From: Bacteroidota bacterium
GTDB lineage: Bacteria; Bacteroidota; Rhodothermia; JANXDC01
DNA: 64,000 bases
Direction of reading: 5' to 3'
NCBI GenBank assembly: GCA_025998875.1
Contig: AP024675.1
Location: 1,273,549-1,337,548, forward strand
The notes beneath the pieces are model-generated. The model was not told the origin of the DNA. It was given only the letters and a program-made list of their open reading frames with translations, and made no database searches. Shown one piece after another: positions 2,249-15,803 of this stretch (positions are counted from its first letter, which is position 1; every line of letters starts with the position of its first letter). The position numbers and the translations under genes were made by a program.

Positions 2249-3223
2249 TCAGAGGGGGGCAGCGTACAGGTGCACAAGCCGCTTTTCGTGCCACAGGGCA
2301 AATCCCACCAGGCCGCCTTCACGCTCTGGCCCGGGAATCTGAAGCTGTCCCACGCCCACCCGGGCAGGCAGGACCTCCCAGCGGGCCATTGTGAGCGCTT
2401 TGCAGAATGTCCCGAGCTCGGGGCCGGATTCGTTTTCCGCCCGAAGCAGGCCCAGCGCATAACTGCGCAACAGGCGTTCGTGCACCCCGCGCCAGAGTTC
2501 AGAATGGGCAAATACGTCCATCCCCAGCACCTTTGCTCTGTAGGTGGCAATGATGCCTACGATCCCCTCCTCTACGAGCGTCCGCGGGATGTGCAGAGGA
2601 TGCGCGTTGGACAGTACGGATGCATAGCTTTCCGTATCCGAGTACCGATCTGCCTCCTCCAGGGCCCGGAAGACTTCGTGCCAGATCAGGCTCTGATCGG
2701 GCAGGGGGGTTTTGCGTAGATACCAGTTGGACCGAAGGCTTGTGATTTTCCTGCGCCGCAGGACGATATCCGTGAGCGCCTCCCTTTCGACCTCAAACGC
2801 CCTCCGGAAGCCCCATCGGCCCCTCTCTACGCAGGAGACAGGGATCACATGTTCGCCCTTGTTCAGGAGCAGGCTGATGTTTACTGTGCGCGTCTGCATG
2901 CCGCCTGTGAGCAACGTGCCCTCCGGGATGAAGACCAGACTCGGCTTTTGCACGGACACGGATAGGCGGGGAACCGTGGGGGTGCGAAGCTCATCGACCT
3001 GTGCCCACCCCTCCCGGAGCGCCTCCTCCAGCAGGACGTAGGGAGATGAGGGCGATTGCGGCCAGCATGCCCTGAGCGGCCACAGCTCCAGGTCCTTCTG
3101 CTGTCGTATGGGCGGAAGGAGTTCCAGTTCCGCGGAGCCACCGAAAAGGGAAAGGACGTGCGCGCTTTCGGACATAGGTCTTTGCTCCCGCTGCGTGTTC
3201 CTGTTTCCCGATTTATGATGCAA
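2249..3223 (-). CDS. Hypothetical protein (324 aa), last gene of minus-strand zinc-finger/sigma cluster
   Basis: Long ORF with protein-like composition (W, F, Y, K present) unlike GC-artefact ORFs; start may be internal Met at ~3175. Confidence 0.45.
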   Translation of the reverse strand: MHHKSGNRNTQREQRPMSESAHVLSLFGGSAELELLPPIRQQKDLELWPLRACWPQSPSSPYVLLEEALREGWAQVDELRTPTVPRLSVSVQKPSLVFIPEGTLLTGGMQTRTVNISLLLNKGEHVIPVSCVERGRWGFRRAFEVEREALTDIVLRRRKITSLRSNWYLRKTPLPDQSLIWHEVFRALEEADRYSDTESYASVLSNAHPLHIPRTLVEEGIVGIIATYRAKVLGMDVFAHSELWRGVHERLLRSYALGLLRAENESGPELGTFCKALTMARWEVLPARVGVGQLQIPGPEREGGLVGFALWHEKRLVHLYAAPL

Positions 3224-3286: not shown

Positions 3287-3913
3287 CTATACCTGCCGGC
3301 TCTCTCGGGCGTGGCGCACGCTTCGGCTCCAGAATTGCCGCAGAGCTTCCGGGGTAAGCGCAAGCGGGAGGTGGTAGAATAGCTCCCGCACGCTCTCCCA
3401 GTGTTTCAGCAGAGGATAGAGACGAACAAGGCCCGGGAAGCACTCCGCTATCGAGTCCCAGCCCTCCGGGGTGCGGAGGGGTCCGGACAGGAGATCAGAG
3501 ATCTCCTTCCACCGGTAGCCCAGCTCCCGGAGCAGATAGAGCGCAAGCAAACGAACGTCATGGCGTCCCCATTCCGGTTCCTCGAGCTGATCGGCGTCAG
3601 ATGGCCGTGCTATAGGCGCTTCCAGGTCGGGATGGGGCCGCAGAATATCGGCTCCCAGCCGGGTCAGGATCTCCTCAACAATCCATCTCGGAATCCCCAG
3701 CCTGTGGGCGATTTCCGCCTCGGTGGGGGAGCGCTCCAGCTGCTGATAGAGCCAGCGCCAGGCCCGGAGTACGGCCCCAACGTGTCGGCGTGCCGAGGGG
3801 CTCAGATTCAGTAGAGGGCCCACAAAGCGGAGCATCTGCCAGCGAATGTGCTGTAGGGCGAAAGCAGAAAACGGAACCCCTCGATCCGGATCAAAGCGCC
3901 GCACCGCCTCCAA
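3287..3913 (-). CDS. Sigma-70 family RNA polymerase sigma factor (group 3 / FliA-like), regions 2.3-4; conserved region 2.2 lies upstream of first available start codon
   Basis: FDPDRGVPFSAFALQHIRWQM (region 2.3/2.4-like), SPTEAEIAHRLGI (region 3-like), LALYLLRELGYRWKEISDLL (region 4-like). Frame translated by hand upstream of the TTG at 3913 gives ...FEDFLQEGCIGLLEAV (region 2.2 consensus) with no ATG/GTG/TTG back to an in-frame TGA at 4223-4225. Confidence 0.55.
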   Translation of the reverse strand: MEAVRRFDPDRGVPFSAFALQHIRWQMLRFVGPLLNLSPSARRHVGAVLRAWRWLYQQLERSPTEAEIAHRLGIPRWIVEEILTRLGADILRPHPDLEAPIARPSDADQLEEPEWGRHDVRLLALYLLRELGYRWKEISDLLSGPLRTPEGWDSIAECFPGLVRLYPLLKHWESVRELFYHLPLALTPEALRQFWSRSVRHARESRQV

Positions 3914-4125
3914 GAGGCCGATACACCCCTCCTGAAGGAAGTCCTCGAAGCAGAACGCCCGCCGGAGTCCGCATCCGAACAGCCGTCTGCTTAATCGGTA
4001 CGCCTCCAGGCGGATTTGAGGTGTCAGCGCATCGAGCAGTACAGCATAGGCCCTCTCCTCACCTCGCTGGGCGCGCAGGACGAGAGGAAGCAGCGAATCC
4101 GGAGCGGCAGCAGGTACCTCCTCGT

Positions 4126-5199
4126 TTACCGGCTCAGAAGCAACAGCGTGTGGGGTCCGACCCGGAACGTGTCGGGGAGGTCGATCTTCGCCCCGAGCAG
4201 GTCGGTGCCAACGGGCCGAAGTTCAACGTCTCCGAGCAACACGGGTTCCCGCCAGGCCGGATCGTAAAGGGCCACCCGGACCCTCTGGCTTTTCCGTCCC
4301 CGCATGCCCAGGATCAGGCACATGCTATCCAGGCTTTGCTCTACCGCCCAGTTCCAGCCGGCCAGTCTGCCCCGGGCTACAGACCAGAAGTCCAGCAGAG
4401 GGGCGCTGTACATCTCCAATCTGGTCTGCCGCTGCCAGCTGGCCCGCCGTTGCCAGCGCGCGCGGGGGCGCTTGGAGGCCGCGATCCTCAAGGCCAGGAG
4501 GGTGCTGGATCGGGGCTCCGGGATTATGGCCTGGAGGGCCTGAGATATATGGTACCACAAGGAGGGGGGCAGTGCGCCGGGAAGTCGGGAGACCAGCAGT
4601 TCGGCCTCCGCCCGACAGGCCGGACAGCTCTGCAGGTGCTGTGCTGTCCTCAGGTAGCCCCCCCGTCGCAGAAAGCGTGCGAGGTTTCGGGGCGAGGGGC
4701 AGAGCCGACGGACGCTCTGACGGGCTTTCGCCTGCATTTCCCGAAAAGCCTCCCGGCACTCCGCGCACCGCTCCAGATGGGCGCGCGTGGATTCGGGCAG
4801 GGCGGGATGGAAAAAGGCTTCTTCTTCGGGGGCGAAAAGGGCCTCGCGGGGCAGGTCTGCGATCTCTTCGAGCACCTTCCACCGTTGCGGACAGCGCAAC
4901 AGCTTCCGAAGCTGGTCCCAGTCTCCCTCCCGGACAACGGCATCGAAGAGGATGCGGAGTTCTGCGGACGGACGCGCGCCGGTGGGCAGAAGCAGAATGG
5001 CCTCCGGAAGTCGGCCTCCCCGCTTCCGGGCCTGAGGGGTATGCAACCAGCGCCGGAGCTGCTCCTGGAAGATGTTGCGGGCTTCCCAGGGCACGAGCAC
5101 AACGTCTTCAGGCGGCCAGCTGGCCCGACGGACCTCGAAGTCCGGGGGCCAGTCCAGACCGGTCCACTCGAGCCCGAAGACCTGCACCACGGTTTTCAT
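4126..5199 (-). CDS. Hypothetical protein with two H-x3-C-x2-C (ZAS-like zinc-finger) motifs; candidate anti-sigma factor
   Basis: HLERCAEC (aa 141-148) and HLQSCPAC (aa 188-195); protein-like composition, whereas the overlapping plus-strand ORF 3790..5439 is Pro/Arg/Gly-rich. Confidence 0.5.
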   Translation of the reverse strand: MKTVVQVFGLEWTGLDWPPDFEVRRASWPPEDVVLVPWEARNIFQEQLRRWLHTPQARKRGGRLPEAILLLPTGARPSAELRILFDAVVREGDWDQLRKLLRCPQRWKVLEEIADLPREALFAPEEEAFFHPALPESTRAHLERCAECREAFREMQAKARQSVRRLCPSPRNLARFLRRGGYLRTAQHLQSCPACRAEAELLVSRLPGALPPSLWYHISQALQAIIPEPRSSTLLALRIAASKRPRARWQRRASWQRQTRLEMYSAPLLDFWSVARGRLAGWNWAVEQSLDSMCLILGMRGRKSQRVRVALYDPAWREPVLLGDVELRPVGTDLLGAKIDLPDTFRVGPHTLLLLSR

Positions 5200-14526: not shown

Positions 14527-15803
14527 GCTTCCTTTGCGGGTAGCGAGGCTTCCTCTTCGGATTCCAGTCCCACCAGATATCGCCACAGCCAGAAGAGCGC
14601 GGCCTGCACAGCGCGCTCTTTGTTGCGGCGTCGATCCTGTTCAAAAAGGAAGCGTCGCGCCCGGGTTCCCTCCGGGGTCGAAAGGCCGATCCAGACCAGC
14701 CCCACCGGCTTTTCCGGACTGCCCCCTGTGGGGCCAGCGATGCCTGTGGTGGAAATGCCTATCTGGGCGCCGAAGCGCTGGCGCACGCCCTCGGCCATCT
14801 GACAGGCTACGGGTTGGCTCACCGCCCCGTATCGGGCGATGGACTCCGCCTCAATCCCGAGCAGGGCCACCTTGGCTTCATTGGCATAGGCCACCACACC
14901 GCCCAGGAGGTAGCGGGAGCTGCCGGGAATGTCTGTGATCCGGTCCAGCAGCAGGCCGCCCGTACAGGATTCCGCCACGGCGATTGTGCGGTTTTGTTCG
15001 GCAAGCAAACGGCCGACGACGGCCGGGAGCGTTTCCTCGTCGGTGCCGTAGATATACCGTCCGGCGCGGGTGCGGATGTATGCTTCCAGCTCCTCGATAG
15101 CCCGGTTGAGCGCCTCTTCGTCCTCCCCGCGCGCAGTTATGCGCACGCGCACGCCCAGCGGGCCGGGCAGGTAGGCCACCTCCAGGCCGCGACACAGCCA
15201 GGGGCTGAGCTCTCCGATACGTTCGGCCAGGGCCGATTCGCCGATGCCGGCCGTCAGCAGGGTGCGCATGCGCAGGCGGGTTCCCCGATGGCGCGTCCGC
15301 AGGCGGGGAAGCACGAAAGCCTCCATCATGGCCTGCATCTCGTAGGGCACACCGGGGAGTACGATGAGGATGCGGCCTTCGCGTTCGAACCAGATCCCCG
15401 GCGCCGTGCCAAGCTCGTTGGGGATGAGTTCTCCTTCCCGGGGCAAGAGGGCCTGTTTGAGGTTGTTTTCTGGCATCGGGCGGCCGCGGGAGGTGAAAAA
15501 GGCGCGCATGCGCGCTACCCATTCCGCGTTCAGCTCCAGATGCCAGCCGAAATATTCGGCCAGGGCCTCCACGGTGCGATCATCGTGCGTGGGGCCCAGT
15601 CCTCCGGTGCTGATGAGCACTTCCCCTGCGGTCCACAGGCTGCCGACCGCCTCCCGGATCAGGACCGGATCGTCGCCTACGGTGAGCTGCCGAATGACCC
15701 GGATGCCGATCTCGGTGAGTTTTCCCCCGATCCAGGCCGCGTTCGTGTTAACCACCTGGCCGATCAGGAGCTCATCCCCTATGGATAGAACGGCCGCTCT
15801 CAT
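14523..15803 (-). CDS. cinA: CinA-family competence/damage-inducible protein (MoCF-binding domain plus nicotinamide-nucleotide amidohydrolase domain)
   Basis: MRAAVLSIGDELLIGQVVNTNAAWIG N-terminus at internal ATG 15801-15803; C-terminal CinA domain ESCTGGLL; the N-terminal 100 aa of the track ORF are Arg/Pro-rich and not protein-like. Confidence 0.8.
   Translation of the reverse strand: MRAAVLSIGDELLIGQVVNTNAAWIGGKLTEIGIRVIRQLTVGDDPVLIREAVGSLWTAGEVLISTGGLGPTHDDRTVEALAEYFGWHLELNAEWVARMRAFFTSRGRPMPENNLKQALLPREGELIPNELGTAPGIWFEREGRILIVLPGVPYEMQAMMEAFVLPRLRTRHRGTRLRMRTLLTAGIGESALAERIGELSPWLCRGLEVAYLPGPLGVRVRITARGEDEEALNRAIEELEAYIRTRAGRYIYGTDEETLPAVVGRLLAEQNRTIAVAESCTGGLLLDRITDIPGSSRYLLGGVVAYANEAKVALLGIEAESIARYGAVSQPVACQMAEGVRQRFGAQIGISTTGIAGPTGGSPEKPVGLVWIGLSTPEGTRARRFLFEQDRRRNKERAVQAALFWLWRYLVGLESEEEASLPAKEA

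Follow-up and report, generated by a model that had tools for sequence, protein, structure and literature searches.

How can a gene encode a conserved protein domain upstream from every codon at which its translation would normally begin? The question is raised by a sigma factor gene in a 64,000-nucleotide (nt) stretch of a Bacteroidota metagenome-assembled genome (MAG) from a hot spring. We call this stretch the window (proteins BCX01114.1 and BCX01115.1, “KatS3mg041”). The gene lies on the minus strand, and its frame (codon starts congruent to 3913) stays open between an in-frame TGA at 4225-4223 and the stop TAG at 3289-3287, its first codon starting at 4222. The first ATG, GTG, or TTG is the TTG at 3913, which gives an open reading frame (ORF) of 208 amino acids (3287..3913), and the first 71 codons past the upstream stop hold no canonical start. 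Upstream from the TTG the same frame reads ...LLPLVLRAQRGEERAYAVLLDALTPQIRLEAYRLSRRLFGCGLRRAFCFEDFLQEGCIGLLEAVRRFDPDRG (in a longer reading, ...VNEEVPAAAPDSLLPLVLRAQRGEERAYAVLLDALTPQIRLEAYRLSRRLFGCGLRRAFCFEDFLQEGCIGLLEAVRRFDPDRG...), and this is where region 2 of the sigma factor is encoded. A preliminary description of the locus had reported the open frame, the TTG as its first start, and the region 2 lying upstream from it, and both frame reading and Pfam bear this out. It had also placed the stop of a 357-residue gene, read in another frame, at 4126-4128 inside the open stretch, which is indeed where it lies. In all likelihood, the sigma factor is a real, separate, full-length gene whose annotation has been truncated. 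Where its translation starts is less certain, and we tentatively favor a CTG just past the upstream gene. The features discussed below are as follows.

3287..4093, minus strand: proposed sigma factor coding sequence, 268 codons plus the stop TAG (3289-3287); Pfam, a family hidden Markov model (HMM), an AlphaFold2 (AF2) model, and a coding score that is positive throughout
4091..4093, minus strand: CTG, proposed initiation codon; the first near-cognate codon of the open frame, at HMM position 8
3911..3913, minus strand: TTG, first canonical start; inside region 2.2, and the choice of some gene callers (208-residue product)
4094..4128, minus strand: junction, seen in the sequence as the stop TAA (4128-4126) and a 32-nt spacer (4125-4094) holding GAGGAGG (4123-4117)
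4129..4222, minus strand: chance-open stretch of the sigma frame, overlapping the upstream gene at its 3' end; in the sigma frame it is non-coding and free of near-cognate starts
4129..5199, minus strand: upstream gene of 357 residues (BCX01115.1, “hypothetical”), ATG at 5199 and stop TAA at 4128-4126; ORF, coding score, and homologues

A complete sigma factor behind a truncated annotation

Judged by its region 2, the predicted product is a sigma-70-family factor. When residues are counted from nt 4126, Pfam Sigma70_r2 (PF04542) matches residues 43-101, or nt 4000-3824 (43.7 bits against a cut-off of 24, E=2.4e-11), and Sigma70_r3 (PF04539) matches residues 117-154 (28.2 bits against 25.3). 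Neither of the Pfam region 4 models (PF04545, PF08281) matches the sigma factor, and HTH_23 is found below threshold only. The protein is thus laid out as regions 1.2 and 2 (~4093-3824), region 3 (~3778-3665), a disordered linker, and an atypical sigma-4-like C-terminal domain (~3571-3314). Searched against solved structures, the profile of its family finds SigA, RpoS, and FliA at E-values of 1e-25 to 1e-22. With SigA and RpoS the alignment spans regions 1.2 to 3, and with Escherichia coli FliA it begins in region 2.1 and reaches the first region 4 helices. The AF2 model built from the CTG start with a 16-sequence alignment has a mean predicted local distance difference test (pLDDT) score of 85.6. 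In this model residues 1-10 form a helix (pLDDT 97), the C-terminal domain is helical, and the only disordered part is the linker at residues 156-175. Its top Foldseek matches in the PDB are full-length SigB, sigma-S, and SigA, with ~255-285 columns aligned and a high global root-mean-square deviation.

The closest known factors are those of sigma-70 group 3 (FliA/WhiG and SigB/SigF/SigG), which the predicted protein resembles in its regions 2 and 3, in its size of ~268 residues, and in its best NCBIfam matches, FliA_WhiG and SigBFG. The comparison with FliA/SigB-type factors that had been proposed for the frame bears out regions 2-3, and the scores stay below the curated subfamily cut-offs: TIGR02479 (FliA_WhiG) gives 63.5 against a cut-off of 189.6, and TIGR02980 (SigBFG) gives 49.4 against 234.35, which leaves the protein outside both subfamilies. 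It also differs from group 3 in that its partner gene is upstream rather than downstream and does not encode an anti-sigma factor of the RsbW/SpoIIAB or FlgM type. Furthermore, its C-terminal domain has family-specific W and P residues and ~40-45 extra residues, with no Pfam match to Sigma70_r4. Compared with the extracytoplasmic function (ECF, or group 4) factors, it has a region 3, and its TIGR02937 score of 40.1 falls below the cut-off of 42.9, so that it is not counted among them either.

All public gene calls for the sigma factor begin at TTG 3913, GTG 3904, or ATG 3835, giving proteins of 208, 205, and 182 residues, each named “hypothetical protein.” In the genes of the window, ATG, GTG, and TTG together make up 6.2% of the in-frame codons, and a coding stretch without any of them arises by chance with p ~0.02 for 60 codons and p ~0.01 for 71. 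Within ordinary genes of the window, start-free runs of at least 60 codons occur 19 times in 11,115 codons. Since such runs do happen in ordinary genes, the real anomaly is a single missing initiator followed by a moderately unlucky start-free N-terminal third, and this is why gene callers fall back to the three internal codons. The segment ahead of TTG 3913 (4093-3914) encodes the tryptic peptides AYAVLLDALTPQIR, LEAYR, and AFCFEDFLQEGCIGLLEAVR. By cutting the protein to a “hypothetical” of 182-208 residues, every public pipeline has hidden a complete sigma factor, and the same may have happened in relatives that are called from an internal methionine.

The missing start is a true feature of the locus and has gone to fixation in the population. 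Hot-spring samples that carry the organism include JGI 3300020139, 3300020153, 3300043544, and 3300077104, as well as SRR21619488. The locus is present in six independent assemblies of different samples (L001-L006: five metagenomes from the Joint Genome Institute, JGI, and one Logan-assembled run of the Sequence Read Archive, SRA), and the 361-nt junction at 3880-4240 is identical in all six. Elsewhere in the 3-kb cassette these assemblies differ from the window at 6-7 positions. They carry other single-nucleotide polymorphisms (SNPs) and hence represent different strains rather than copies of one assembly, and as the junction is the same in all of them, a sequencing indel is not the cause. 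Every sampled population is fixed for the start-less allele (the contigs lie in 42 collection blocks and come from seven samples).

Where coding begins

A codon-usage log-odds score trained on 19 long genes of the window was used to follow coding along the two frames. Read in its own frame as far as the stop, the upstream gene scores +159 bits. Over the overlap (4222-4129) its frame is coding (+16.2 bits, with a third-position GC content, GC3, of 0.87), whereas the sigma frame is non-coding (-23.0 bits, GC3 0.45). Farther downstream the sigma frame is coding, with +19.4 bits in the segment 4093-3914 and +78.7 bits in 3913-3290, and the 11 codons between the upstream stop and 4093 account for only ~0.6 bits. 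The frame switch in codon usage occurs at the upstream stop TAA. Because the overlap is non-coding in the sigma frame, the 94-nt open overlap is incidental, and the initiation event falls within ~35 nt past the TAA. Where the two frames part, the sigma-frame GTA at 4129-4127 overlaps the upstream stop as “GTAA.”

The spacer holds the Shine-Dalgarno (SD)-like sequence GAGGAGG, which is not credible as a functional SD. SD-like cores are not enriched upstream of gene starts in the window, and they are over-represented in the window as a whole (GGAGG, 352 copies against 266 expected; GAGGAGG, 31 against 17), with an excess of GGAGG within genes. Bacteroidota are reported to lack SD-dependent initiation (PMC6847099, PMC9976891) and to lean on A-rich, Kozak-like contexts rather than on SD pairing (PMC6847099). 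The lack of enrichment at starts is consistent with these reports, although the argument from the phylum is a generalization from which the organism's class might differ. A scan for promoters and terminators around the locus returned nothing above shuffled expectation.

Two smaller observations concern the junction. A near-repeat, CTGCTGCCGCTC (4113-4102) and CTGCTTCCTCTC (4093-4082), has its copies 20 nt apart, and each would read as Leu-Leu-Pro-Leu, in a different frame. The CTGCTGCCGCTC copy lies 3-6 nt past GAGGAGG in the frame of the upstream gene, and opens a 29-codon ORF ending at the TGA at 4026-4024. The near-repeat was considered as a duplication or indel scar and set aside, as it is probably due to chance. 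The second observation concerns the end of the upstream protein. Its relatives end in ...LFL[RV]PE[EP][AT]D[VA]* (L007 1766-1795, L008 2218-2247), and in the window the protein stops seven residues earlier (...LLLLSR*), with acidic “NEEV” codons found in the sigma frame after its stop (4126-4150 region). As read from the sequence, the early stop and the NEEV codons hint that, in this lineage, the junction underwent an indel long ago or gained a stop.

An unannotated family of sigma factors

Word-indexed protein searches with the sigma factor, the upstream protein, and the family profile yielded little beyond generic sigma factors and sequences from the species itself, and among 5.8 billion proteins the cassette has no orthologue above 40% identity. 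An exhaustive HMMER search did find full-length relatives of 265-297 residues with 35-39% identity (P0017, P0018, P0019, P0021, P0024, and P0051), whose residues 6-9 align to residues 10-18 of the window's 279-residue translation. In P0017, P0018, and P0019 the match sets in at residues 6-8, opposite residues 10-15 of the query. In all, full-length relatives form ~17 clusters at 50% identity (227-307 residues), nearly all of them metagenomic, and a query with the C-terminal 94 residues likewise gives ~17 clusters that have the distinctive C-terminal domain in common. Named members are P0017-P0021, P0024, P0029, P0032, P0033, P0040, P0046, P0051, P0081, and P0163, together with the proteins of the metagenomic loci L007-L010.

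Regions 1.2-3 are ordinary throughout the family. The C-terminal domain follows the pattern KFLVL.ILRE...Y.W.EIA.LL...P..W....P....W..V..LF..PPP.LT..ALRQFYSR.RR.L, in which the alignment points to ~40-45 extra residues between the “Y.W.EIA.LL” and “ALRQFYSR.RR.L” helices, with invariant W and P residues. From its sequence, this domain looks like a sigma-4 helix-turn-helix with a large insertion.

The family locates the N-terminus. In 22 of the 22 aligned relatives, the protein begins with a methionine that stands 5-20 residues before the conserved “L..RAQ.G” motif. The profile of these 22 relatives, from which the window was left out, matches the open frame with 197.6 bits (E=1e-62). The match begins at D10 (nt 4099), which is model position 6, and the model methionine projects to ~nt 4114. 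Full-length homology starts around residue 10 after the upstream stop. In a leave-one-out comparison, the sigma factor scores 199.6 bits, at the low end of the full-length members (201-294 bits). We count this as inside the family range, and the gene is therefore not visibly degraded; all family-invariant residues and columns are kept.

At least four full-length loci of the family (L007-L010, of which L009 and L010 are near-identical) are among the matches listed in a metagenome scan. The sigma factor starts at an ATG in all four of them, and a homologue of the 357-residue protein (32-37% identity) is encoded directly upstream in each. In L007, a 15-nt spacer separates the upstream TAA from the ATG, with GGAGGGGG upstream of the latter. 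In L008, the upstream gene and the sigma ATG overlap by 8 nt, and in L009 and L010 by 17 nt. This close spacing suggests that the pair is normally coupled in translation. As the relatives have separate, ATG-started genes, the ancestral arrangement is two tightly coupled genes and not a fusion.

Some relatives are called short as well. In the P0019 cluster (P0210-P0223), many public calls begin at an internal methionine that aligns with ATG 3835 of the window (182 or 194 residues instead of 265 or 277), and calls in the P0024 cluster (P0228, P0229) begin at the same methionine (201 residues instead of 280). L007, which belongs to the P0019 group, has a clean full-length ATG ORF. A scan of genome contigs with the window's sigma factor recovered only unrelated Bacillus and Streptomyces sigma factors, and neither this species nor a sister species. 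In viral contigs, only generic region 2 matches were seen, and the family is thus not evidently phage-borne.

A candidate start at CTG

Of the ways in which the sigma factor could be translated, the one we favor, tentatively and at close to an even chance, is a start at the near-cognate CTG 4093, to which coupling with the upstream gene probably contributes. The preliminary description had listed a non-canonical start such as CTG among its options, and this option is the best supported of those it listed. Between the TGA at 4225 and position 4093, the sigma frame has no ATG, GTG, TTG, CTG, ATT, ATC, ATA, ACG, AAG, or AGG, which makes CTG 4093 its first near-cognate codon. It corresponds to position 8 of the profile built from the 22 relatives, and a protein started there would read M/L-LPLVLRAQRGEE..., with six residues before the RAQ motif (5-20 in the relatives). 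Homology and coding signal are both found upstream of all canonical starts, with a near-cognate codon placed where the homologues start. The N-terminal peptide, if initiated with methionine at this codon, would read (f)Met-LPLVLR. Initiation at another non-canonical codon takes up the small probability left over by the readings discussed here and below.

In the proposed scheme, the sigma factor would be a separate gene of ~268 codons that is coding from just past the upstream TAA and is initiated at CTG 4093-4091. The codon is 33 nt past the upstream stop and may be used by ribosomes that have just terminated on the upstream gene. CUG initiation reaches ~1-2% of that at AUG in E. coli (bioRxiv 10.1101/063800). 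A CTG start would make the sigma factor much scarcer than its ATG-started partner, as would fit a factor that is kept below its anti-sigma. Its origin could have been a one-step event: TTG to CTG is a single transition toward the dominant leucine codon of the genome (CTG makes up 6.5% of the codons in the window's genes, TTG 1.0%). The decoding of the CTG as a start, its coupling, the anti-sigma role of the partner, and the regulatory rationale are all points that we infer.

Strain variation leans toward constraint. Over the cassette, SNPs occur at seven sites (six synonymous and one non-synonymous). Three are in the sigma gene, two of them synonymous, the third being the non-synonymous change A170T in the variable linker. 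For the sigma gene alone this pattern is statistically weak, the strains being ~0.2% divergent.

Several points weigh against the CTG, whose use is predicted from the comparison of sequences. Its context is poor, with a T at -3, pyrimidine-rich surroundings, and no A-rich leader. The resulting protein would be seven residues shorter than the family consensus at its N-terminus, and the 33 nt from the upstream stop are farther than in any relative. Protein and genome-contig searches found no sister-species orthologue in which the CTG could be compared. The strains are ~99.8% identical, and an intact ORF with three SNPs fits a functional CTG and a recent loss of the start alike. Finally, the window yielded no other gene that starts at a non-canonical codon. 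The best candidate for another start-less coding leader (14544-14814) has a clearly non-coding translation and was rejected, and the others are mostly antisense-frame artefacts.

Near-cognate starts are known in bacteria, as in infC, which starts at AUU, and as rare annotated CTG, ATT, ATC, and ATA starts. The sigma gene is like these in having an intact and conserved ORF with CTG as its sole plausible initiator, and low translation could likewise serve regulation. It differs in that the CTG is not conserved (the relatives have ATG) and its use is predicted, and in that no autoregulatory logic of the infC/IF3 kind is known here.

A stronger version of this reading, in which the weak start is functional and adaptive, is a long shot. 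In this version, the CTG would be used by ribosomes reinitiating after the anti-sigma gene, which would hold the sigma factor far below its inhibitor. If so, sigma output would rise when start-codon fidelity drops, for instance under IF3 limitation or during the translational stress of a phage attack, and the cassette would act as a sensor of translation perturbation. Separately, the family, with its insertion-bearing sigma-4-like domain and its obligate upstream partner with two HxxxCxxC motifs, would be an undescribed regulatory module attached to variable effectors. Near-cognate starts and start-loss pseudogenes are both already known; what the locus offers is a clean natural test case of whether Bacteroidota, which do without SD pairing, can start a gene at CTG.

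Alternative explanations

The main rival of a CTG start is a recent loss of the start codon, after which the sigma gene would still be transcribed but hardly translated at all, making it a cryptic pseudogene of recent origin that is fixed in the species. We consider this unlikely, but it remains live. A single G-to-A change could have turned GTGA into GTAA, keeping the upstream stop (TGA to TAA) while destroying a GTG start; alternatively, a TTG or ATG at 4093 could have mutated to CTG. The 71 start-free codons and the ATG of every relative agree with such a loss, as do the poor context of CTG 4093 and the family score at the low end of the full-length members. Moreover, the cassette is an orphan in the species, as is typical of fast-turnover accessory and conflict genes, which are often lost, and at a strain divergence of ~0.2% stops would not yet be expected in a dead gene. 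On the other hand, the ORF runs intact through 268-279 codons and keeps every residue that is invariant in the family, its fold is predicted with confidence, most of the SNPs among strains are synonymous, the cassette genes on either side are intact, and every sampled population is fixed for the start-less allele. No argument on either side settles the matter. The marks of a pseudogene were looked for, and there are no internal stops or frameshifts and no loss of family-conserved residues. The preliminary description had grouped a frameshift mutation or sequencing indel as one pseudogene-making option; a start-removing mutation that leaves a silent gene is the part of it that survives, and the sequencing indel is refuted by the identical junction of the six assemblies.

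A real product of 182-208 residues, started at TTG 3913, GTG 3904, or ATG 3835 and devoid of regions 1.2-2.2, is improbable. These are the only canonical starts and the choice of every pipeline, and two clusters of relatives are also called from the equivalent internal methionine (182/194 and 201 residues). However, the 60 codons upstream are clearly coding and homologous, with Sigma70_r2 matching from residue 43 and the family HMM from residue 10. TTG 3913 is inside the LLEAVRRFDP segment, which aligns to region 2.2 (the core-binding helix) of solved sigma factors, so a protein started there would lose its main RNA-polymerase-binding surface. The full-length ATG ORF of L007 further means that gene-caller artefacts account at least in part for the short calls in relatives. 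TTG 3913 is thus very probably not the biological start.

Recoding is more improbable still. A programmed -1 (or +2) frameshift, or an out-of-frame start at the CTG CTG of 4113-4108 followed by a shift, would either produce a fusion or feed ribosomes into the sigma frame. A fusion would have the junction ...TLLLLS-EPVNEEVPAAAPDSLLPLVLR and the peptide ...HTLLLLSEPVNEEVPAAAPDSLLPLVLR, in a predicted product of ~68 kDa. With respect to the upstream gene, the sigma frame is indeed shifted by -1, and it stays open through the last 31 codons of that gene. GAGGAGG also lies 6 nt upstream of the out-of-frame CTG 4110, and the acidic tail that follows the LFL motif in the relatives is loosely like the NEEV of the window's sigma frame. 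In this, the locus recalls the programmed -1 frameshift fusions of dnaX and of insertion sequence (IS) orfAB pairs, where adjacent ORFs overlap and the downstream one is in the -1 frame and lacks a canonical start. It differs from them in having no slippery site, stimulatory structure, or coding signal in the overlap, and in the arrangement of its relatives, which have two separate genes with ATG. The preliminary description had proposed searching the overlap for frameshift signals; over 4260-4090 the X XXY YYZ heptamer is missing in its canonical and its relaxed form, and no homopolymer of five or more bases occurs. Folding of the junction RNA does not surpass that of shuffled sequence (z=+0.86), and no Rfam family reaches its gathering threshold anywhere in the window. 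As for the SD-like motif, such motifs are common and not avoided in the genome, and are largely ignored by Bacteroidota ribosomes (PMC6847099, PMC9976891). The fusion of the upstream protein to the sigma factor by a frameshift, which had been listed as a second option, is therefore unsupported.

An assembly or sequencing indel at the junction, for which only the a priori error frequency of MAGs speaks, can practically be dismissed: the 361 nt are identical in L001-L006, there is no homopolymer run there, and reading the sequence finds no single indel near the junction that would restore a canonical start to the frame.

The upstream partner

The 357-residue protein encoded ahead of the sigma factor is, by its sequence, anti-sigma-like. 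It has two HxxxCxxC motifs (HLERCAEC and HLQSCPAC), conserved in four of the four aligned homologues, which also keep an N-terminal GRLPEA.L.LP.G...PE...Y.DAVV block. The match to zf-HC2 (PF13490) is below threshold (16.3 bits, where 22.2 is required), the anti-sigma models of NCBIfam score far short of their cut-offs, and the RsiW motif match has an E-value of 0.28. The “zinc-finger” label that the gene had received earlier thus has no domain match above threshold behind it, but it does fit the two conserved motifs.

Pairs of sigma factors and zinc-binding anti-sigma (ZAS) proteins, such as RsrA-SigR, RsiW-SigW, and ChrR-SigE, provide the nearest comparison. The likeness is in the two HxxxCxxC motifs, in weak matches to zf-HC2, RsrA, RseA, ChrR, and RsiW, and in a gene that always adjoins and often overlaps that of the sigma factor. 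The differences are that all of these matches are sub-threshold, and that proteins of the window type are much larger (278-447 residues), with a conserved N-terminal domain that has no assigned function. Here the anti-sigma-like gene precedes the sigma gene, the sigma factor is not of the ECF group, and the two proteins are putative partners. On sequence grounds, a predicted sigma family with an insertion-bearing sigma-4-like domain and an upstream double-HxxxCxxC partner is unannotated.

The cassette and its variable neighbors

Three genes on the minus strand make up the cassette, and they encode the anti-sigma-like protein, the sigma-70-family factor, and an ARPP-1 domain protein (3175-2252). 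The third gene and the extent of the cassettes are as follows.

2249..3175, minus strand: ARPP-1 domain protein, 308 residues, ATG at 3175; PF20208 at E=3e-43; called with 308 residues in L001 and L003-L006
2249-5199, minus strand: cassette of the window, pair plus variable neighbors
719-3021 in L007, 904-4947 in L008, and 4142-7828 in L010: cassettes of the relatives, again the pair plus variable neighbors

The genes that follow the pair differ from one locus to another: ARPP-1 in the window, VWA and PP2C in L010, a GIY-YIG nuclease in L007, and, in L008, an E1-like ThiF protein that matches PADLOC E1-E2 models. ARPP is a predicted enzymatic component of conflict systems, and is elsewhere paired with transcription factors (PMC9503650). 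In the window, the ARPP-1 protein is likely to be the output or effector of the cassette. By analogy, a constant pair with variable, effector-like genes is the pattern of a portable regulatory module, as in conflict and defence systems. The sigma family and this putative module probably merit more follow-up than the start-codon anomaly itself.

Two details concern the ARPP-1 gene. The 111-nt gap between the sigma stop (3287) and its ATG could house a putative promoter for the sigma factor. Its longest ORF runs from TTG 3223 (324 residues), and all public calls begin at ATG 3175, with a GGAG 9 nt upstream.

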